Positions 1-8,421 of a stretch of 12,960 nt of DNA are shown here, in pieces (position 1 is the stretch's first letter; each line of letters starts with the position of its first letter). Made by a program: the position numbers and the translations under genes. This stretch comes from a virus (taxonomy: Duplodnaviria; Heunggongvirae; Uroviricota; Caudoviricetes). Under the pieces are notes generated by a model. It saw only the letters and a list, made by a program, of their open reading frames with translations, had not been told where the DNA came from and made no database searches. The stretch lies in the IMG/VR virus record IMGVR_UViG_3300046507_000435, positions 64,001 to 76,960 of that record, one strand, 5' to 3'.

Positions 1-1480
1 ACGGTGGATGAATTCCACGAATTTAAAAATCTTTGGTACTCGTCGCGCCTGACGGGCGTAAAGGGCATGGGCAACAAGACCGGCTCGCAAAAGGCGTTTG
101 ACATGTACAACAAGATCCGCGTGCTGCGCGATTCGCCGACCGGTACCGTCACCGCGATGACCGGCACGCCGATTTCCAACAGTGCCGTGGAAATGTACAC
201 CATGATGCGCTACCTGGCCGCCGGCGAGCTGCGCGACATGGGGCTGGAGCATTTTGACGCCTGGCGCGCCCAGTTCGTCAGTGCGGACGCCGGCTGGGAG
301 CCGACCGAAACGGGCCGCTTAAAGGAAGTGAACCGTCTGGGCCGCACCTGGTCGAATATGCGCTCGCTGATGGACCTGTACTACAGCTTCACCGATTCGG
401 TGGACAACGACGCCATCAAGGCCGCCTATGCCGAGGACAACAACGGCGCCGCCTTCCCGATCCCGCAAGTGAAGGGCGGCGATCGCCAGTCGATCGTGAT
501 CCAGCCGACCGCCGGCCAGATCGGCATCCTGAACGAGGTGCTGGATGGGTTCGACAACCTGGGCGACATCAAAGACCCGCAGGAGCGCAACAAGGCGCGC
601 CTGCGCCTGATGGACCGCGCCCGCAAGGTATCGCTGGACGTGCGCGCGGCCGATCCGCGCAACACCAGCATGGAAGCGGGTGGCAAGCTCGACGTGCTGG
701 CCGACAACGTGCACCGCATCTACCAGCAATGGGACGCCGATCGCGGCACCCAGCTGGTGTTCCTCGACCGTTCGGTCCCGAAGGCCAAGGGCGATGACGC
801 CGTGCTGAAGGAGTACGACGCCCTGGTGGCGGCCCAGAACGAAGCATTGCGCGCGGGTGACGAAGCTGGCCAGCGCCGCGCCGGCGAGGCGCTGGAGCGC
901 TTCGACCCGAACGAAATGGAAGAGCTGCGCGCCGCGCAGACGGGCGGCTGGAACGCCTATCAGCAGATCAAGGACAACCTGATCGCGCGCGGCATCCCAG
1001 CCGACGAAATCCGTTTTGTGCAGGAAGCGAACAGCGACGCCCAGAAAAAAGCCCTGTTCGACGCCGTCAACGACGGCACCGTGCGGGTCTTGATCGGTTC
1101 GACCCCGCGCATGGGCGCCGGCACCAACGTGCAAAAGCGTCTGGTGGCGCTGCACCATGCCGACGTGACGTGGAAGCCGTCCGACATCGAGCAGCGCGAA
1201 GGGCGCATCATCCGTCAGGGTAACTCGCTGCTGGACAAGTACGGCATGGACAAGTTCGCCGTCGAGATCCTGGCCTACGCCACCGAGCGCACCATCGACG
1301 CCAAGATGTGGTCCTTGAATTCGTCCAAGCTGCGCACCATCAACGGCATCCGCAAGTATGACGGCGCCTTCTCGATGGACTTTGAGGACGAGGAATCGGT
1401 CAGCATGGCCGAGCTGGCCGCGCTGGCATCGGGCGACCCGCTGTTGCTGGAGCGTGTCAAACTGATGTCGGAGATTGACA
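1..1480 (+). other. SF2 (SNF2/DarB-type) helicase domain of the giant protein
   Basis: Walker B DEFH (7-18), motif III TGTPISNS, motif V LIGST..MGAGTNVQ, motif VI WKPSDIEQREGRIIRQGN. These match my recollection of P1 DarB-like methylase-helicases. The methyltransferase and Walker A would lie upstream of the window. Confidence 0.9.
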
Positions 1481-4400
1481 AGCTGGAGCTGCTCAAACGC
1501 CAGCATGCCCGCAAGGAATGGGGCATCATCAGCCAGATCGAGGACGCCGAGCGCACCATCGCGCGCGCGCCGGCCCGCATCGCCGCCCTGCAGCAGGACA
1601 TGGGAGTGCTGAGCGCCGGCCAGGCGGCCATGGAAGCGGCCGCCGCCCAGCGCCGCGTCACGGTCGAGGGGCAGCAGTACAGCGACCCGACCGCCGCGCG
1701 CGCCGCCGTGCACGCCGCCGTCCAGACCCAGCAGCAGGGCGACGAGAAGGCCAAGGTATCGATCAACGTGGGCGGGCGCCGCTTGACCACGATGGACGGC
1801 GCCAACAGCGCCATCACCACGGCGCTGGGCGACAGCACGCCGTTTGCCATGACGGTGGGCGAGCAGACGCTGGGCGCGCGCACCGACGCGGCCCGCGCGC
1901 TGGCCAACATCGCCCAGCAGCAATCGAATAAGCTGGAGGCCGGCGAGGAAGTGACGGTACCGGCCGGCCGCTATCTGGGTCTGCCGCTGGAAATGACGGT
2001 GGTGCACAACAACCACGGCGGCCACTATGTCACCCTGGCGGTGCTGCGCGCCGACGGTTCGACCCTGCAGACGGCCGACACGAATATTCGTGCCGATACC
2101 GCCTACACCACCTCGTTCCTGCGCGGTGCGGTCGAGAAGCTGGAAGAGGCGCTGGAGCCGGGCCGCCTGTCGTACCAGATCAGCTATCAGGAAAAGGCGC
2201 TGGCCAGCGCGCAGGCCGGCCTGCCGGACCTGCAGGCCCGCAAGGGCGGCGCCTGGCCGCAGCAGGGCGAGCTGAACGCCAAGAACGAACGCCTGTCGCA
2301 GGTCATTTCGCTGCTGTCGTCCGGCGTGCAATCGAGCGCGCCGGGTGTGCGCTTCTCGATGAATCCCCTGATGAACGCCGACGGCAGCTACCGCCGCCAG
2401 GCGCCGGTGGCCGGCGGCGCGCTGTTTAGTCGCAAGCGCATCGACACCGACGACCAGCTGGTCAACGTGTACGCGCAGATCGCGCAGGACGACGACGCTT
2501 TCCGTATCCCCGACAGCGGCGCGCGTACCCTGGCCGGCGTGATGGCCGACATGGCGCCGGGCGTGGCCGTGGACGACTTTTATAGCGCGGGCCACCGTGA
2601 AGAGGGCGACCCGATGGCCGACCGCGTCTGGCATATCAGCGCGCAGGATGGCACTGGCGCCAACGCCTTTGTGTACCGCAATACCCGGGCGCGCCAGATC
2701 TGGCTCGACATTTCGAACTGGAAGGAAGGGCGCTCCGGCAACCGCATCTATCAGGCGGTGGCCACCTGGGCGCACAATACCGGCACCCAGTTCATCGGCG
2801 ACCCGGCCGGCCTGTCGGACAAGGCACTGTACCGTCGCACCGAGCAGATGCTGTCGTCGGCGCTGCGCCATGGCACCACCCAGCACCTGGCGCCGCACGC
2901 GCGCCAGCAAGAGGCCACCCACACCAAGAACGGGGAAGCGATGCGCCCGGTTCATTGGCGCGATGGTCATGACGCAAAGAACTTGCGGGAACTGTTGCTT
3001 TCGTCCTACACTAACATCCGCACTGTCTTCCCTGAAATCGATGATGTCCATTACAACTTCTCCACCGGCCAGTTTGAGCGCGCGCCCGCATCCGTTCGCG
3101 CATCTGGCGGGCCATTACTGGCTGACCAATCCGCTGCGGGAGAACCAGTTGCTCAGCACGGGCTGGGAGCCGGAGCAGATCGAGGCGCTGCCGGACGATC
3201 AGTTGACGGCGCTGATGAAGGACAGGGGCAGCTCGCACGAGTGGCTGCAATTCCTGTCACTGACGCGGATTTCCGCGCTCTTGGGGAATCGGTTCGCCGA
3301 GCCTATGACGTACTCTTCCCTTCCGGTCGAGGAGCGTTTACGCCTCCGATTGGCGTGTCTGATCTTAAAAGAGCGGCTCTCACCGGTACCGTACTACGCG
3401 CAGAAGGAAGCGAAGTGGGGCGAGCAGTTCTGGATCACGTATCAGAGCGGCTGTTACAACGAGTAAGCCCGCAGTTGGCCGGCCTGCTGTATAGCCCGAG
3501 CGCGGACTACTTCCGCGAAAGTGACGAATTCTCCCCGGCCGTGATCGACGCGGTGCCCCATCACGGGGTGCTGCCGCTGGCCGCCACGCTGTCGGGCGCC
3601 GATCTGCTGCAGGCGATGAAAGACACCGAGCAGCTGAACCGCCAGCTGATCAAGGAAGGCATCGCCCCGGTGCGTGCGCTGCGCACGGCGCCGAGCAGTG
3701 ACTTCGCCCTGGCGCGCCAGATCGGCGCCGCGCTGGGCATTCCGGTGCACTTTGTTGGGCAGAACAGCGCTTTTGAGGGCGTGGCCCACAAGGGCGTGGC
3801 CTTCCTGTCCGAGGGCATGCGCAACCCGGAGCTGGCCATCGCCGGCCACGAAACGCTGCACGCGCTGGAGCAAAGCAATCCCGCCCTGGGCGAGCGTCTG
3901 CGCCAGCAGATCCGCGCCTACCTGAAGGCGGGCGTGGTGCAAGAGCGCCAGCTGCAGGAATACGCCGCCAGCGGCTTCCAGGATGTCTCGCTGGAGAAGG
4001 CCGAGGGCGAGGTGCTGGCCGACATCAACGGCGCCATGTGGCTCGATCCGCAATTCTGGTCGGATCTGGCCAAGGCGGACGCCTCGCTGTTCCGCACCGT
4101 GGCCTACAAGTTCATGGAGCTGGCCGCCAAGGCGATCAGCGCCCTGCGCAGCCGCCGCTTTGACGTGGCGCGTCTGGTCACCGACGTGGCGGCGGTGCGC
4201 GCCATCATGGTCGATACCTGGGCGCAGCACGCCCAAGGCCTGCACGCGCGCGACGACATCAGCGCGCCGGCGGCCTTCTCGCCTGCGGGCGGCGACCATG
4301 CCGCAGCACTGGACAAGGCCCGGGACGCCGATCGCCAACTTGCCGAGGTTGCATTACAATACGGGGGCCGCGACGCCTACCTGGCGCAGAAAGCGGCCGG

Positions 4401-7400
4401 CGCCACGCTGCTGACCTATCCGCAGTGGTTGATCACCAAGACGCCGAATTTCAAGCAGTTTTATGGCGATTGGGAGGCCAAGCATGGACCCGCAGCAGAC
4501 GCAGCAATTCATCTCGGCCATCAAAACGGCGAAGAGTACGGCGGACCTTACAGCGTTGCTGATGACGCTGCCGGCGGCACCCCTTCCTTCTTTGGCCAGT
4601 CCGGACCCGTACGAACGATTGGAGGCACTGGAGAATCTGCCGCGCGCGAGCCAGCCGTCTACTATCACGGAACTACGGCGGATATTGACGCCTTCGACCT
4701 GAACCACCCGGGCCGCAAGGACCACGGCTGGCTGGGCACGGGCGTCTACGTCACCAGCTCCGAGTTCGTCGCCCATGGCTACGCCGACATCAAGGGCACC
4801 GAGGGCAAGAACATCGTACCGGTGTTTGTCGCCGTCAAGAACCCCTATGTGGCCCCTGCCGGCCTCAAATCCAAACTGAAAAACGCCCCGCGCGAAGTGG
4901 TCGACGCCTTCACCGCGCGCCTGGCCGCCGATGGCCACGATGGGGTGGTGTTCGAAACGCGCGCCGGCGCGCAGGAGCTGGTGGCCTTCAACCCGGCCGC
5001 CGTCAAGTCGGCCATCGGCAACAATGGCGCCTTCGACAAGGGCAATGCCGACCTGCGCTTTAGCAAAACCGACGGCGCGGCGAAGGCGGTCAAGATCGCA
5101 TGGTCGGACGACCATGAGCCGGGCCAGAACCCAGCGGGCATCAGCGCCTATGTCGAGGGCCACGAAGGCAAGGCCTTCATGTTCGCCGAGGATAACGCTG
5201 ACGGCACCTACTCGATTCAGGAGTCGGGGCTGCCTCCCGAGCTGCGCGGACAAGGCTACGGCGTCAAGATGTATCAGGCCTTAATCGATGAAATGGCGCG
5301 CCGTGGCCAGGTGCTGACCTCGGATGTCTCCGTATCGCCGGCCGCCCAGCACGTCTACCAGGCGCTGCAGGATCGCGGCTACGGTATCGAGCGCAATCCC
5401 AACGTGAGCGCCGATCCGGACACGGGCGCGCTGGAGTCCAATGACGGCAAGCCGGTCTACCGCATCATCCCGCGCGATGGCGGCCTGCTGTTCAGTCGCG
5501 CCGGCATCGGCGAGGCGATCGCCAGCGCCGCCAACAACGCGGCCGCGCTGCGCCTGCCGGCCGGCTACCTTGTCGGCGACCTGTTCAACCAGTCGGGCAA
5601 GATCAGCTGGTGGCACAAGACCATCGGCACCATGGAGAACCTGGCCAAACGTCAGCCGGCCTTCGCCCGCGTGTACGACGCCGTGCAGAGTTTTATTGGC
5701 GACATTTCGCGCTACGCCGTGGCGGCCGCCGACCTGGCGCCGACGCTGCTGCCCAAGCTGGAGGATTTCAAGGACGTGTTCGGCAAGGACCGCAAGAAGC
5801 CGCTGACGGCCGAGGACACCAAGGCGATCGGCGCGCCAATCTTCGAAGGCACGCTGTCGTGGGCGCGTGACGCCAATGGCAAGCCGGTCAAGATGGAGGT
5901 GCTGGAAGCGCAGGCCGCGCAGCTGACGACCGAACAGAAGGCCCAGATCCTGCTGCAAAAGGGCATCATCGATGACGGCCAGAATCAAGCCTGGCTGGGC
6001 CAGTCGGGCATGATGTACCAGAACATCATCGACAGCAAATTTACCAAGACCCAGCTGGCCGCCGGCGTGGTCTGGACTGATCCGGAGCTGCGCGAGCTGT
6101 TCAGCCTGAACGATCACCAGATCGCGCTGTACCGCGAATTCCGCGCCGCCCTCGACAAGAGTTTGACGAACCTGTCGATCAGCGAAATGGTGAAGTTCGC
6201 CGGCAAGGATGCCAAAGGCATGCTGGAGCAGGCCATCGCGGCGCCGGACATCAAGGCCGCCGGCGAGCTGCTGCGCGACCACTTCATTGCCCTGGCCCAG
6301 CAGGAGCCGGACAAGGCCGACATGCACCTGACCACGGCCAGCCAGCTGATGGATCTGGCCGACAAGGGCGAGGATCTGATTCGCCGCGGCTACGCGCCGC
6401 TGTCGCGCTTTGGCAAGTACACGGTGTACGTGCAGCAGGGCGAGGAACAGGTGTACTTCGGCATGTTCGAAACCCAGTATGAGGCCTCCAAAATGGCGCG
6501 TGACATGGCCGCCGAGCATCCGGACGCCACCGTCACCCACGGCACCGTGTCGGAGGATGCCTATAAACTGTTCGCCGGCGTGTCGCCGGAAACGATCGAG
6601 CTGTTCGGCTCCATGGTCGGGCTCGACAGCCAGGCCAACGCCGCCAGCACCGAGGTGTACCAGACCTATCTGAAGCTGGCCAAGAACAACCGCAGCTCGA
6701 TGAAGCGCCTGATCCAGCGCAAGGGCATCGCCGGTTTCTCGGAGGACGCCGCGCGCGTGCTGGCCGGTTTTATTTATTCGAACGCCCGCCTGACCGCCGG
6801 CAACGCCCACCTGGGCGAAGTGGACGAGGCGATCACGGAGATTCCGAAGCAGCAGGGCGAATTGACGGACGCGGCGATGCAGCTGCGCGAGTCGATCCGC
6901 AACCCTGAAGGGGGCAATAAACTGGGCGGACTGATGTTCGCGCAGTTCCTGGGCGGCTCCGTGGCGTCGGCCATGGTCAACCTGACGCAGCCGGTCACCA
7001 TGACGCTGCCATATTTAAGTCAGTTTGGCGGCATCGCCAAGGCCGGCAGCCGCCTGGCGGCCGCGATCCGCGACGCCGGCAAGGAAACGACGGGCGAAGC
7101 GCACCTTGACGAGGCGCTGCGCTGGGCTGCCGACGAGGGCATCGTGGCGCCGCAGGAAGTGCACTACCTGCAGGCGCAGGCCGCCGGCAAGGGCGCGCTG
7201 CGCTCGGGCGACGGCACCCGCGCCGGCAACGCCCGCGCCGCCCTGAACAACGCCCTGTCCAAGGTCCAGCTGGGATGGGGGAAATTGTTCGCCATGGCCG
7301 AACTGACCAACCGCCGCGTGACCTTTATCGCCGCCTACCGCACCGCGATCGATGAGAACATCCCGAACCCGGCCAAATTCGCCGAAGAGGCGGTGTCCCA

Positions 7401-8421
7401 GACGCAGGGCACCTACAACAGTGGCAACAAGCCGCGCTGGGCCCGGGGCGCGATCGGCGGCGTCTTGATGACCTTTAAGCAGTATTCGATCGGCTATCTG
7501 GAGCTGTTGTCGCGCATGGCATTCGCCGGCGCGCCGGGCTCGAAAGAGCGCGCCGCCGGGCGCCGCGCGGCGCTGTACATGCTGGCCGTGCTGTTCCTGA
7601 TGTCAGGCGCCGACGGCTTGCCGTTCGAAGCGGATCTGGAGGACGCGATTGACGGCCTGATGCAGCGACTGGGCTACAACTACTCGACCAAGCGCGCCAA
7701 GCAGGCGTTTTTGACCGACGTGCTGGGGCAGGGCGGCGCTGATTTTGCCTTAAAAGGCCTGTCGAGCATGCCGGGTATGCCGGTCGACGTGGCGGGGCGC
7801 TTCGGGATGGGCAACCTGATCCCGGGTACCGGGCTGCTGACGAAAAAGCAGTCCTATACGCAGGATCTGGGCGAGCTGGCCGGACCGGCCGGGGACATCG
7901 CCAAGCGGGCGTTTTCGGCCACCGGCAAGGCGCTGGGCGGCGACATCGCCGGCGCCGCCATGGACCTGTCGCCGGCGTCGGTGCGCAATGCCGTCAAGGG
8001 CGCCGACATGATCGCCACTGGCCAGTACAGCGACGGTCGCGGCTACAAGGTCAACGATGTCACGCCGATGGAAGGGGTGTTAAAAATCGTCGGCTTCCAG
8101 CCCAACAGCACGGCCAACATTCAGGACGCCAAGGGCCAGGCGCTGGACGCGATCGCGCAGAACCGCATGCGGTCCTCCGAGATTCAAGAGCATTGGGCGC
8201 AGGGCATCGCGGCGCAAGATCCGGCCATGATCGCTCAAGCCCGTGAATGGCGCGACGACTGGAACAGCAAGAACCCGGACACGCCGATCCGGGTCAACAT
8301 GCCGGCGATCGCCAAGCGGGTACGCAGCATGCGTCAGGACGCGCTGAACCGGACCCAGAAGACGGCCCCGGCCGCGCTGAAGGCGACGGTACGCAACGAA
8401 CTGTCGGAGGTACGCCACTGA
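1..8421 (+). CDS. Giant DarB-like polyvalent protein, 5'-partial (helicase + GNAT-like + zincin + ART + GNAT + PLxRFG/LPD38-like); probably a virion-packaged, injected protein
   Basis: Frame 1 is open from base 1 (ACG GTG GAT GAA TTC CAC = TVDEFH), so GTG at 4 is an internal Val and not a start. Ends in TGA TGA at 8419-8424. GC3 about 90% in sampled stretches. Recognisable motifs are listed as separate features. Confidence 0.93.
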   Translation, partial: TVDEFHEFKNLWYSSRLTGVKGMGNKTGSQKAFDMYNKIRVLRDSPTGTVTAMTGTPISNSAVEMYTMMRYLAAGELRDMGLEHFDAWRAQFVSADAGWEPTETGRLKEVNRLGRTWSNMRSLMDLYYSFTDSVDNDAIKAAYAEDNNGAAFPIPQVKGGDRQSIVIQPTAGQIGILNEVLDGFDNLGDIKDPQERNKARLRLMDRARKVSLDVRAADPRNTSMEAGGKLDVLADNVHRIYQQWDADRGTQLVFLDRSVPKAKGDDAVLKEYDALVAAQNEALRAGDEAGQRRAGEALERFDPNEMEELRAAQTGGWNAYQQIKDNLIARGIPADEIRFVQEANSDAQKKALFDAVNDGTVRVLIGSTPRMGAGTNVQKRLVALHHADVTWKPSDIEQREGRIIRQGNSLLDKYGMDKFAVEILAYATERTIDAKMWSLNSSKLRTINGIRKYDGAFSMDFEDEESVSMAELAALASGDPLLLERVKLMSEIDKLELLKRQHARKEWGIISQIEDAERTIARAPARIAALQQDMGVLSAGQAAMEAAAAQRRVTVEGQQYSDPTAARAAVHAAVQTQQQGDEKAKVSINVGGRRLTTMDGANSAITTALGDSTPFAMTVGEQTLGARTDAARALANIAQQQSNKLEAGEEVTVPAGRYLGLPLEMTVVHNNHGGHYVTLAVLRADGSTLQTADTNIRADTAYTTSFLRGAVEKLEEALEPGRLSYQISYQEKALASAQAGLPDLQARKGGAWPQQGELNAKNERLSQVISLLSSGVQSSAPGVRFSMNPLMNADGSYRRQAPVAGGALFSRKRIDTDDQLVNVYAQIAQDDDAFRIPDSGARTLAGVMADMAPGVAVDDFYSAGHREEGDPMADRVWHISAQDGTGANAFVYRNTRARQIWLDISNWKEGRSGNRIYQAVATWAHNTGTQFIGDPAGLSDKALYRRTEQMLSSALRHGTTQHLAPHARQQEATHTKNGEAMRPVHWRDGHDAKNLRELLLSSYTNIRTVFPEIDDVHYNFSTGQFERAPASVRASGGPLLADQSAAGEPVAQHGLGAGADRGAAGRSVDGADEGQGQLARVAAIPVTDADFRALGESVRRAYDVLFPSGRGAFTPPIGVSDLKRAALTGTVLRAEGSEVGRAVLDHVSERLLQRVSPQLAGLLYSPSADYFRESDEFSPAVIDAVPHHGVLPLAATLSGADLLQAMKDTEQLNRQLIKEGIAPVRALRTAPSSDFALARQIGAALGIPVHFVGQNSAFEGVAHKGVAFLSEGMRNPELAIAGHETLHALEQSNPALGERLRQQIRAYLKAGVVQERQLQEYAASGFQDVSLEKAEGEVLADINGAMWLDPQFWSDLAKADASLFRTVAYKFMELAAKAISALRSRRFDVARLVTDVAAVRAIMVDTWAQHAQGLHARDDISAPAAFSPAGGDHAAALDKARDADRQLAEVALQYGGRDAYLAQKAAGATLLTYPQWLITKTPNFKQFYGDWEAKHGPAADAAIHLGHQNGEEYGGPYSVADDAAGGTPSFFGQSGPVRTIGGTGESAAREPAVYYHGTTADIDAFDLNHPGRKDHGWLGTGVYVTSSEFVAHGYADIKGTEGKNIVPVFVAVKNPYVAPAGLKSKLKNAPREVVDAFTARLAADGHDGVVFETRAGAQELVAFNPAAVKSAIGNNGAFDKGNADLRFSKTDGAAKAVKIAWSDDHEPGQNPAGISAYVEGHEGKAFMFAEDNADGTYSIQESGLPPELRGQGYGVKMYQALIDEMARRGQVLTSDVSVSPAAQHVYQALQDRGYGIERNPNVSADPDTGALESNDGKPVYRIIPRDGGLLFSRAGIGEAIASAANNAAALRLPAGYLVGDLFNQSGKISWWHKTIGTMENLAKRQPAFARVYDAVQSFIGDISRYAVAAADLAPTLLPKLEDFKDVFGKDRKKPLTAEDTKAIGAPIFEGTLSWARDANGKPVKMEVLEAQAAQLTTEQKAQILLQKGIIDDGQNQAWLGQSGMMYQNIIDSKFTKTQLAAGVVWTDPELRELFSLNDHQIALYREFRAALDKSLTNLSISEMVKFAGKDAKGMLEQAIAAPDIKAAGELLRDHFIALAQQEPDKADMHLTTASQLMDLADKGEDLIRRGYAPLSRFGKYTVYVQQGEEQVYFGMFETQYEASKMARDMAAEHPDATVTHGTVSEDAYKLFAGVSPETIELFGSMVGLDSQANAASTEVYQTYLKLAKNNRSSMKRLIQRKGIAGFSEDAARVLAGFIYSNARLTAGNAHLGEVDEAITEIPKQQGELTDAAMQLRESIRNPEGGNKLGGLMFAQFLGGSVASAMVNLTQPVTMTLPYLSQFGGIAKAGSRLAAAIRDAGKETTGEAHLDEALRWAADEGIVAPQEVHYLQAQAAGKGALRSGDGTRAGNARAALNNALSKVQLGWGKLFAMAELTNRRVTFIAAYRTAIDENIPNPAKFAEEAVSQTQGTYNSGNKPRWARGAIGGVLMTFKQYSIGYLELLSRMAFAGAPGSKERAAGRRAALYMLAVLFLMSGADGLPFEADLEDAIDGLMQRLGYNYSTKRAKQAFLTDVLGQGGADFALKGLSSMPGMPVDVAGRFGMGNLIPGTGLLTKKQSYTQDLGELAGPAGDIAKRAFSATGKALGGDIAGAAMDLSPASVRNAVKGADMIATGQYSDGRGYKVNDVTPMEGVLKIVGFQPNSTANIQDAKGQALDAIAQNRMRSSEIQEHWAQGIAAQDPAMIAQAREWRDDWNSKNPDTPIRVNMPAIAKRVRSMRQDALNRTQKTAPAALKATVRNELSEVRH
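2434..3070 (+). other. Divergent GNAT-like domain (cassette 1)
   Basis: IWLDISNWKEGRSGNRIYQAVATWAHNTGTQFIGDPAGLSDKA parallels the GNAT motif A/B pattern of the second GNAT in this protein (G.G..xYQA....A..G....D..xS..A). Recognised by eye, no HMM run. Confidence 0.5.
2983..3012 (+). promoter_or_regulatory. Putative internal sigma70 promoter upstream of nested ORF1
   Basis: TTGCGG (2983-2988) - 18 nt - TACACT (3007-3012), inside a stretch where the host frame uses atypical codons (TTG, CTT, ACT). Confidence 0.35.
3041..3466 (+). CDS. Nested +1-frame ORF1 inside the giant gene, about 105-141 aa, unknown function (candidate immunity protein)
   Basis: Hand count over about 3074-3463: GC3 about 82% in the +1 frame versus about 44% in the host frame, against about 90% elsewhere in the host gene. 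The product reads like a folded protein (HPFAHLAGHYWLTNPLRENQLLSTGWEPEQIEALPDDQL...KWGEQFWITYQSGCYNE). TAA at 3464-3466. Start uncertain: ATG 3041/3044, TTG 3074, or TTG 3149 (GGGAG 6 nt upstream). Confidence 0.72.
   Translation: MMSITTSPPASLSARPHPFAHLAGHYWLTNPLRENQLLSTGWEPEQIEALPDDQLTALMKDRGSSHEWLQFLSLTRISALLGNRFAEPMTYSSLPVEERLRLRLACLILKERLSPVPYYAQKEAKWGEQFWITYQSGCYNE
3496..4260 (+). other. Zincin-like metallopeptidase domain (cassette 2)
   Basis: IAGHETLHALE (HExxH at 3847-3861) with a downstream EGEVLAD acidic motif that could supply the third ligand. Such domains are known in phage polyvalent proteins. Confidence 0.7.
4332..4360 (+). promoter_or_regulatory. Putative internal sigma70 promoter upstream of nested ORF2
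   Basis: TCGCCA (4332-4337, 4/6 to TTGACA) - 17 nt - TACAAT (4355-4360, 5/6 to TATAAT). It coincides with a short run of rare host codons (CAA CTT GCC GAG GTT GCA TTA CAA TAC). Confidence 0.55.
4345..5064 (+). other. ART-PolyVal-type ADP-ribosyltransferase cassette (H-Y-E clade) (cassette 3)
   Basis: TLLTYPQW...TPNFKQFYGDWE leader, then YYHGT (H at 4666), GWLGTGVYVT (Y at 4747), AHGYA, GHDGVV, ELVAF (E at 4975), ending KSAIGNNGAFD...DLRFS. Matches the ART-PolyVal pattern from memory. Confidence 0.85.
4484..4702 (+). CDS. Nested +1-frame ORF2 inside the giant gene, 72 aa, predicted helical, unknown function (candidate ART immunity or regulator)
   Basis: GGAGG (4473-4477) 6 nt before ATG 4484. 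Hand-counted GC3 about 72% in the +1 frame versus about 53% in the host frame. Amphipathic product MDPQQTQQFISAIKTAKSTADLTALLMTL...YERLEALENL...ITELRRIL. The host frame here is a Gly/Ala-rich, linker-like insert. Confidence 0.72.
   Translation: MDPQQTQQFISAIKTAKSTADLTALLMTLPAAPLPSLASPDPYERLEALENLPRASQPSTITELRRILTPST
5068..5480 (+). other. GNAT acetyltransferase domain (cassette 4)
   Basis: Acetyl-CoA-binding motif A LPPELRGQGYG (RGQGYG 5245-5262), followed by KMYQALID and LTSDVSVSPAAQHVYQAL. Confidence 0.85.
5500..8418 (+). other. PLxRFG domain and LPD38-like C-terminal region
   Basis: YAPLSRFGKY (PLSRFG at 6397-6414). Helical and hydrophobic C-terminal region (MTFKQYSIGYLELL, GLPF, GMGNLIPG) resembling the ends of phage internal-virion polyvalent proteins. 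The LPD38 label is from recollection. Confidence 0.65.

Follow-up and report, generated by a model that had tools for sequence, protein, structure and literature searches.

Evidence for a gene nested in the +1 frame of the LPD37-coding part of a giant phage polyvalent protein gene

The DNA considered here, referred to as the window, comprises the last 12,960 bases of a 76,960-base IMG/VR virus record (IMGVR_UViG_3300046507_000435). Unless a related locus is named, coordinates are window positions, and the features described lie on the + strand. A giant open reading frame (ORF) at 1-8421, read in frame 1 and open at the 5′ edge of the window, contributes the 3′ 2806 codons of a DarB-like/PLxRFG polyvalent protein and is called the host gene. 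Its LPD37 domain, together with an insertion and a C-terminal tail, is encoded at 2467-3465 and is followed by a GLLYS junction motif at 3484-3498. The subject of this analysis is a second, probable gene, termed F2, which lies at 3044-3466 in the +1 frame relative to the host gene and consists of 140 codons and a TAA stop. The evidence for F2 comes from base composition, the protein family that it defines, the conservation of its start and stop, substitution rates in both frames, and an AlphaFold2 model.

The host gene can be assigned to the polyvalent proteins of phages and conjugative elements, a group that includes DarB-like/PLxRFG giants such as gp27 of Erwinia phage PEp14 (Iyer, Burroughs, Anand, de Souza and Aravind 2017, PMC5512222), because of its domains, its PLSRFG motif and the annotation of its relatives. 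In Pfam searches, LPD37 is matched at residues 823-1055 (E-value 4.5e-64) and ART-PolyVal at an E-value of 1.3e-19, while the matches to GNAT and Helicase_C are weak. The protein also carries an HExxH motif and three G-x-L-(F/Y)-S junction motifs. A relative on the Massilia violaceinigra plasmid NZ_CP024609 is annotated as a "PLxRFG domain-containing protein", and one in PEp14 as "DarB-like antirestriction". Many effector and LPD domains are therefore combined in one giant phage or plasmid polypeptide, and the LPD37, ART-PolyVal, helicase C-terminal part and PLSRFG motif correspond to the published description. The hidden gene would be a layer added to that description: the main text of PMC5512222 uses none of the terms "overlapping", "frameshift" and "out of frame", and literature searches for nested genes in polyvalent genes found nothing relevant.

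The GC content at third codon positions (GC3) changes frame over F2. Across the 130 codons at 3074-3463 it is 0.82 in the +1 frame and 0.44 in the host frame, as had been counted by hand in the initial annotation (about 82% against about 44% over about 130 codons); the host ORF outside 3041-3466 has a GC3 of 0.86, compared with the estimate of about 90% given there. The difference is present in the first half of this segment (0.87 in the +1 frame, 0.43 in the host frame) and in the second (0.75 and 0.42). In a sliding-window profile, host GC3 stays at 0.83-0.95 along the gene and drops to 0.44 at 3151-3450, where the +1 frame reaches 0.82, and the local GC content of the F2 region is also lower, at 0.60-0.61. 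The +1 frame is free of stops from 2543 to the TAA at 3464-3466, listed as an ORF at 2597-3466. This TAA ends 17 nt 5′ of the codon for the G of GLLYS at nucleotide 3484, in agreement with the distance to the LLYS junction proposed earlier.

The comparison of the region covered 15 related loci at 37-69% protein identity, taken from independent assemblies (a finished Massilia plasmid, the Massilia frigida draft genome, and IMG/VR, JGI, ENA, Logan and NCBI contigs); several of them are close relatives, so that locus counts overstate the number of independent observations. In all 15 loci, the +1 frame has no stop over 120 codons or more before it terminates at the same place, with TAA, TGA or TAG, and the giant frame is open across the overlap in 12 of the 15. 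With both frames open, the layout reads as that of an overlapping nested gene. The GC3 switch is also found in L005, L006, L008, L009 and L020, that is, in every giant-gene locus profiled for it. The Massilia plasmid, at 72.6% nucleotide identity, has a sole indel in the region, 6 nt long, and carries its TAA in the same column; all indels among the aligned loci are multiples of three. In the Massilia frigida contig NZ_WHJG01000051 (L013, 4559-7861), the polyvalent gene lacks its 5′ part, with the cut falling midway through LPD37, and stops prematurely after 1101 codons; its nested frame is nonetheless undamaged and almost the same as in the Massilia violaceinigra plasmid.

These alignments bear directly on the possibility that the frame switch is an assembly or sequencing error, produced by one indel near 3050-3075 and a compensating one near 3466. 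Nothing speaks for such an error except the switch itself, and because compensating errors could not recur in 15 independent assemblies, the comparison refutes it as an explanation of the two-frame layout and leaves it a negligible probability. The two doubts raised in the initial annotation, namely that an indel might account for the frame and that homologous regions might not keep it open, are both answered by this result. Its central claim, an overprinted +1 gene overlooked by standard annotation, stands: the frame is open in the 15 loci and is unannotated in the records examined.

The +1 peptide also defines a protein family. In a library of 1.8 billion representative proteins, it aligned end to end with seven small proteins of 61-176 amino acids, all of which terminate in a (C/S/A)-(Y/F/W)-N-x-stop motif, and a profile search raised the F2 family to 13 proteins. 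The members were predicted automatically on contigs that are short or contain gaps; the giant ORF is truncated there, and the gene caller favours the +1 frame instead. No convincing in-frame fusion of the F2 domain to a polyvalent protein was found in the same library; an 811-amino-acid repeat protein (P0009, E-value 6e-5) was judged to be a chance match to a helical repeat and not a fusion form. F2 has no sequence match in Pfam, PHROG or PDB, and the ESM Atlas features gave nothing usable. Pfam scans of 14 family members at E ≤ 0.1 yielded only single chance-level matches, to DUF446 and PHL; a TnpV-like nested gene had also been considered, and no TnpV match was found by Pfam in these 14 members. 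A tblastn search with F2 found no match among GenBank phages and only the Massilia plasmid among plasmids.

Two copies of F2 occur outside the giant genes, with their own upstream starts and no upstream LPD37 core. On the contig of L007 (approximately 47% GC), a 176-amino-acid homolog has its own upstream ATG, and the host-like frame is interrupted by one stop upstream and another in the linker. At L021 (8001-8555), a 184-amino-acid homolog lies between a phage-type integrase gene and other small genes, in surroundings that include MmeI-type restriction-modification, SIR2-like and DUF87 genes in a host of approximately 53% GC. The homology of L021 to the polyvalent gene starts exactly at the HPF motif of F2 and stops approximately 20 codons past the F2 stop. 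The contig of P0016 likewise seems to carry no large downstream gene, and the contexts of P0007, P0010 and P0017 look free-standing too. In L007 and L021, the nested frame survives where the giant frame is not maintained, and these copies may be captured fragments. The free-standing homologs suggested initially do exist, but they are not located beside GNAT genes.

The start of F2 is placed at the ATG at 3044, and use of an alternative ATG at 3041 would lengthen the gene to 141 codons. At the position aligned with 3044, ATG is found in 11 loci carrying the long form of F2 and GTG in two (L015 and L020). The start codon is composed of the last two bases of one host codon and the G of the next, a conserved Val codon. 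The host codon before this Val is GAT (Asp), AAT (Asn), CGT (Arg) or GGT (Gly): the residue varies, whereas the T ending is invariant. In the rest of the gene, T-ending codons account for 24% of Asp, 18% of Asn, 12% of Arg and 7% of Gly codons, and for 8% over all codons, while ATG or GTG represent only 2.1% of +1-frame codons. Among the starts proposed earlier, 3044 (or 3041) is the conserved one and predicts a product of 140-141 residues; 3074 (TTG) and 3149, and with them the short product of 105 residues, find no support, as neither codon is conserved in relatives and a start at 3149 would delete the conserved HPF-H-L motif.

The start codon is covered by an AT-rich, unstructured patch at 3004-3063, which is a probable ribosome entry site; such a patch surrounds the start in all eight loci compared. 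The minimum free energy from −40 to +20 around the F2 start is −4.3 kcal/mol in the window, against a host background mean of −22.1, and the start region has the weakest minimum free energy of 54 windows of 60 nt in seven of eight loci, and the third weakest in the eighth. No anti-Shine-Dalgarno pairing was found upstream of the start in the window, with a weak GAGA or GGAG in some relatives, and regulatory scans found no sigma-70-like promoter and no relevant terminator for F2. Synthesis of F2 by internal initiation on the giant mRNA, at an open and Shine-Dalgarno-poor site, is the mechanism that these features suggest.

Alternative C-termini made by frameshifting are well known in phage genes. 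The same F2 sequence could accordingly be reached by a programmed +1 ribosomal frameshift near 3050-3085 with termination at the TAA ending at 3466, which would yield a truncated polyvalent protein with the F2 domain as its C-terminus. The lack of a Shine-Dalgarno sequence and a promoter in the window would fit this mechanism, as would the long open stretch of the +1 frame before the ATG, which starts at 2543 in the window and extends over approximately 62 codons in most relatives. However, inspection of the aligned segment 3044-3085 in 13 loci revealed no conserved slippery motif from the start to the HPF motif, and this sequence varies among loci and contains a 6-nt indel. Frameshifting would also leave unexplained why host codons for four different residues all end in T and so preserve an ATG or GTG, and why the unstructured patch lies exactly on the start codon. 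Moreover, L007 and L021 encode F2 from their own upstream starts, in the absence of an upstream LPD37 core. Frameshifting is consequently considered improbable as the source of the F2 product, and a separately initiated gene is preferred.

Selection was assessed after alignment of the overlap by the +1 protein, using Nei-Gojobori rates in both frames, with both flanks treated alike; the ratios of nonsynonymous to synonymous rates (dN/dS) were computed for pairs of loci, and they are confounded wherever constraint acts on the two frames at once. At 3086-3290, dN/dS of F2 is 0.3-0.6 in most of the informative pairs, host dN/dS is 0.8-2.4, and host dS is 0.14-0.37 in close relatives. At 3291-3463, the F2 values spread over 0.4-2.3, and in most pairs host dN/dS is 0.28-0.7 and host dS 0.2-0.5. 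In the flanks of the same pairs, host dN/dS is 0.2-0.6 and host dS 0.6-2.0 (most pairs each). Host dS is suppressed two- to three-fold exactly over F2, which corresponds to the classical signature of dual coding. In pairs involving L021 and L007, where the giant frame is broken, dN/dS of F2 is 0.35 and 0.38, and that of the host frame is 1.2 and 1.4. In the N-terminal half of F2, the nested frame is thus under purifying selection and the host insertion beneath it evolves neutrally. Over the folded LPD37 tail, beneath the C-terminal half, both frames appear constrained, with an ambiguous picture for F2 in close pairs.

The AlphaFold2 model of F2, built from a 14-sequence alignment, has a mean predicted local distance difference test score (pLDDT) of 88.8 and a predicted template modelling score of 0.81. 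Nine helices of short to medium length make up this model, which is uncertain only at its first residues and exceeds a pLDDT of 90 at residues 70-135. Foldseek searches of PDB, AFDB clusters and ESM Atlas with this model gave nothing better than an E-value of approximately 1 or a template modelling (TM) score of 0.37, and the best Z score of VIA-align against 48,161 PDB chains was 2.9, which is unusually low for a helical protein. Host-frame residues 815-1175, modelled in the same way, comprise four parts: an LPD37 core modelled with confidence, a stretch in which pLDDT stays below 30, a confident strand with three helices, and a disordered junction. The low-confidence segment (model residues 217-266) is a disordered, G/A/R/D-rich insertion of approximately 50 residues at 3091-3240. 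The following segment, at 3250-3465, is predicted to be structured in both frames, with the strand and three helices of the LPD37 tail (pLDDT approximately 80-88, model residues 270-341) lying over the C-terminal helices of F2. F2 begins with some 15 unstructured residues, whose codons coincide with those for the last conserved hairpin of the LPD37 core; the N-terminal half of the F2 fold then shares its DNA with the disordered insertion, and helices are predicted in both frames over approximately the last 70 codons.

Comparison with the Pfam profile places F2 inside the domain. The LPD37 of PEp14 matches profile positions 10-242 of 243 without interruption, whereas the matches in L004, L015 and L009 reach position 240-241 only by spanning an extra 50-70 residues. 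Because of this difference, the G/A/R/D-rich string is identified as an insertion within LPD37, and the conserved segment after it as the domain's own tail. The linker-like character originally attributed to the host frame along F2 consequently holds only for approximately 3091-3240, and the remainder, to 3465, is conserved and predicted to fold. F2 does not close a cassette, as had been proposed, but lies over the insertion and the C-terminal tail of LPD37. The domains around LPD37 vary by locus (LPD5 with LPD1, ART-PolyVal, RadC or LPD38), LPD37 itself is constant, and F2 lies inside it in every giant gene checked. F2 is therefore tied to LPD37 and not to the neighbouring cassettes.

LPD37 genes without the insertion carry a shorter relative of F2. 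Over the tail of these genes there is a +1 ORF of approximately 60-66 codons that resembles the C-terminal half of F2. Its carriers are PEp14 (L023), the remnant L024 and L026, a locus that came up when 400 genomes were searched with Pfam LPD37; the profile E-values are 1.8e-6 for PEp14, 5.6e-12 for L026 and 5.4e-18 for L024. The 61-amino-acid proteins P0010 and P0018 are of the same kind. In PEp14 (NC_016767), the short form is an unannotated +1 ORF of approximately 60 codons over the LPD37 tail, at 2075-2257 of L023 and inside PEp14_00027, and it was detected only by reading the locus and by profile search. PEp14 is a cultured phage, and its host GC3 falls locally to 0.40-0.46 at this site. 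As a control, profiles were built for all three frames of the LPD37 tail and of two LPD37 core blocks. In the tail, the F2-frame profile scored 32.0 in L026 and 28.9 in L024, against 13.5 and 15.6 for the host-frame profile, and the third-frame profile gave no score above 1. In core block B, the host-frame profile scored 85-100 in distant loci and the alternate-frame profiles 5-41 (35-41 in PEp14). Over the tail, the nested frame is thus better conserved than the host frame at long range; the core-block scores show, however, that similarity in an alternate frame is no proof when taken alone. The short form is probably a real relative of F2, although this cannot be considered established.

The LPD37 tail also occurs detached from the core: small ORFs of 158 and 165 codons in two bacterial genomes (L027 and L028) align with the LPD37 profile over roughly its final 60 positions and nowhere else. 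L027 shows no F2-frame signal, and L028 a weak one.

The position of F2 over an insertion recalls the ShiLan element, an out-of-frame HNH gene within an in-frame insertion of a phage methylase (PMC11855218). In both cases, the host protein tolerates the in-frame insertion as a loop, and the same DNA specifies, in another frame, a folded protein that has a start and a stop codon of its own. By analogy, a mobile stretch of approximately 150-420 bp could have entered LPD37 in frame, persisting as a tolerated surface loop and carrying an out-of-frame gene for its own spread. The absence of the host-frame insertion from the LPD37 of PEp14 and L026, the lower local GC content, the codon bias that tracks the nested frame and the occurrence of the module outside giant genes in L021 and L007 agree with such an origin. 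In contrast to ShiLan, F2 is not an HNH or recognisable nuclease: no HNH or other nuclease family was matched in Pfam or PHROGs, and the model is all-helical. The C-terminal half of F2 overlies a conserved, folded part of the host domain and not an insertion, namely the tail, which the Pfam LPD37 profile includes. There was no sign of homing, nor were filled and empty sites found among close relatives. Since insertion-free LPD37 genes already have the short +1 ORF over the tail, F2 looks like an extended old resident and not a newcomer. A selfish insertion is for these reasons held to be unlikely, slightly more so than frameshifting.

It can also be asked whether a second protein is made at all. 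Nucleotide conservation could be due to a recombination junction involved in cassette shuffling, or to RNA structure, with the +1 ORF and its apparent family as by-products that gene callers pick up on short contigs. The flanking modules are indeed mosaic: L004 diverges after the LYS junction, and L013 and L001 differ strongly in the upstream flank (dN 0.47) and are nearly identical in the overlap regions. Every small-protein match is an automatic gene call, and the alternate-frame similarity may be a by-product of strong host conservation. A frame-blind constraint, however, could not produce a frame-specific GC3 of 0.82-0.87. Over bases where the host frame evolves neutrally, dN/dS falls below 1 in the +1 frame only. 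The same bases fold confidently in the +1 frame and are disordered in the host frame, and the start codon is conserved together with a local loss, not a gain, of RNA structure. Conservation without a second product is consequently judged very unlikely.

Considered together, the results favour a real, separately translated protein-coding gene at 3044-3466, nested in the +1 frame within the LPD37-coding part of the host gene, with a probability of approximately 0.8. At the level of sequence, these approximately 420 bases behave as dual-coding DNA that specifies two proteins. Several points weigh against this conclusion. Long +1 ORFs are common in this GC-rich giant gene, so that openness by itself is weak evidence. 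No Shine-Dalgarno sequence or promoter-like site is present in the window, and the mode of initiation is inferred. In the C-terminal half, dN/dS of F2 is close to 1 in several close pairs while that of the host frame is 0.3-0.6; in principle, the host frame might be the main force shaping this half. Finally, the alternate-frame scores of 35-41 in core block B may result from strong host conservation.

Complete small genes that are embedded out of frame are known from other phages, such as Rz1 inside Rz of lambda, and B inside A and E inside D of phiX174. F2 resembles them in being a complete small +1-frame gene located wholly inside a larger gene on the same strand, with both products conserved and the inner gene missed by standard annotation. 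It differs from them in its outer gene, a polyvalent ORF of more than 2,800 codons in the window, and in its position inside one enzyme-like domain. Approximately 70 codons have a predicted fold in both frames, no Shine-Dalgarno sequence is evident, and the F2 protein is not a lipoprotein, a lysis protein or a member of a known family. In Bacillus subtilis, comS, a gene of 46 codons with a known regulatory role, is nested out of frame in the giant modular srfA-B gene. F2 shares with comS the encoding of a small protein out of frame inside a giant multi-module gene, and its co-transcription with that gene is inferred. Unlike comS, F2 has 140 codons, its product is predicted to fold independently as a domain, and many lineages of phages and plasmids carry it.

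As to its possible role, F2 would be co-transcribed with the giant gene, and ribosomes would start internally at the ATG at 3044, in the AT-rich, unstructured patch that lacks a Shine-Dalgarno sequence. The predicted product is a separate, all-helical protein of 140 residues, which might act on or together with the LPD37 module supplied by the same mRNA, either as an inhibitor or immunity factor or as a folding or packaging chaperone. Because F2 travels only with LPD37, whatever the neighbouring domains, and shares its transcript, a dedicated partnership between the two is conceivable, although this proposal is a tentative one. It is weakened by the fact that the functional link is drawn from co-occurrence. 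A complex prediction for LPD37 (residues 1-345) with F2 scored 0.13 against a mark of 0.32, a result that counts neither for nor against binding. If such a partnership exists, the copies outside the giant genes would represent orphan partner genes.

A broader and more speculative idea, which is rather unlikely as it stands, is that giant injected polyvalent proteins hide cognate inhibitor or immunity genes in alternative frames of their effector modules, with F2 as the one specific to LPD37. If the immunity reading were true, such hidden proteins would keep each effector harmless in the producing cell, and orphan copies, such as L021 beside an integrase in a defence island, would protect bacteria from incoming LPD37 effectors. 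Were nested genes to prove general in giant injected anti-defence proteins, they would constitute a hidden layer of phage-host conflict biology.

Independently of its role, F2 appears to represent a new protein family whose predicted fold has no match; its gene is nested inside a domain and not a linker, and one stretch of DNA would give rise to two structured products. A gene lying entirely within another on the same strand is not called by gene finders, and the F2 family is consequently unannotated. Neither of the two annotated records examined, the Massilia plasmid and Erwinia phage PEp14, lists it, and it comes to light only where a short contig truncates the giant ORF. The overlap offers a clean and comparatively well-supported case of approximately 70 codons with predicted folded structure in two frames. 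In the remainder, order in one frame coincides with disorder in the other, and such material is useful for studying the origin of overlapping genes. LPD37 is widespread among polyvalent proteins, and a constant companion would offer a handle for its study.

Regarding LPD37 itself, the "GNAT-like" label used in the initial annotation is only weakly suggested by structural comparison. Foldseek against PDB gave no match at E ≤ 0.001, and no relative was found among PDB sequences. In VIA-align, several GNATs appear at Z 4.4-5.5 (2vez at Z 5.5, with a root-mean-square deviation of 3.9 and 105 aligned residues), below unrelated KA1 domains at Z 6.3.

Further features of the host gene lie outside F2. 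A second, shallower dip of host-frame GC3 (0.63-0.69) occurs at 4351-4800, just before ART-PolyVal, and no other frame clearly rises there. The segment of 350 residues from the LYS junction to ART-PolyVal, which no Pfam family covers, contains the HExxH motif (H-E-T-L-H, at approximately 3840-3870, host residues approximately 1280-1290) and may constitute an unrecognised zincin-like module. The three G-x-L-(F/Y)-S motifs are located at domain boundaries, at 2419-2433, 3484-3498 and 5485-5499 (host residues 807, 1162 and 1829), and weaker R-F-S and A-F-S motifs are found at host residues 783, 1425 and 1686. The G-x-L-(F/Y)-S motifs could be processing or recombination junctions. In the relatives, modules diverge or are swapped directly after the LYS motif.

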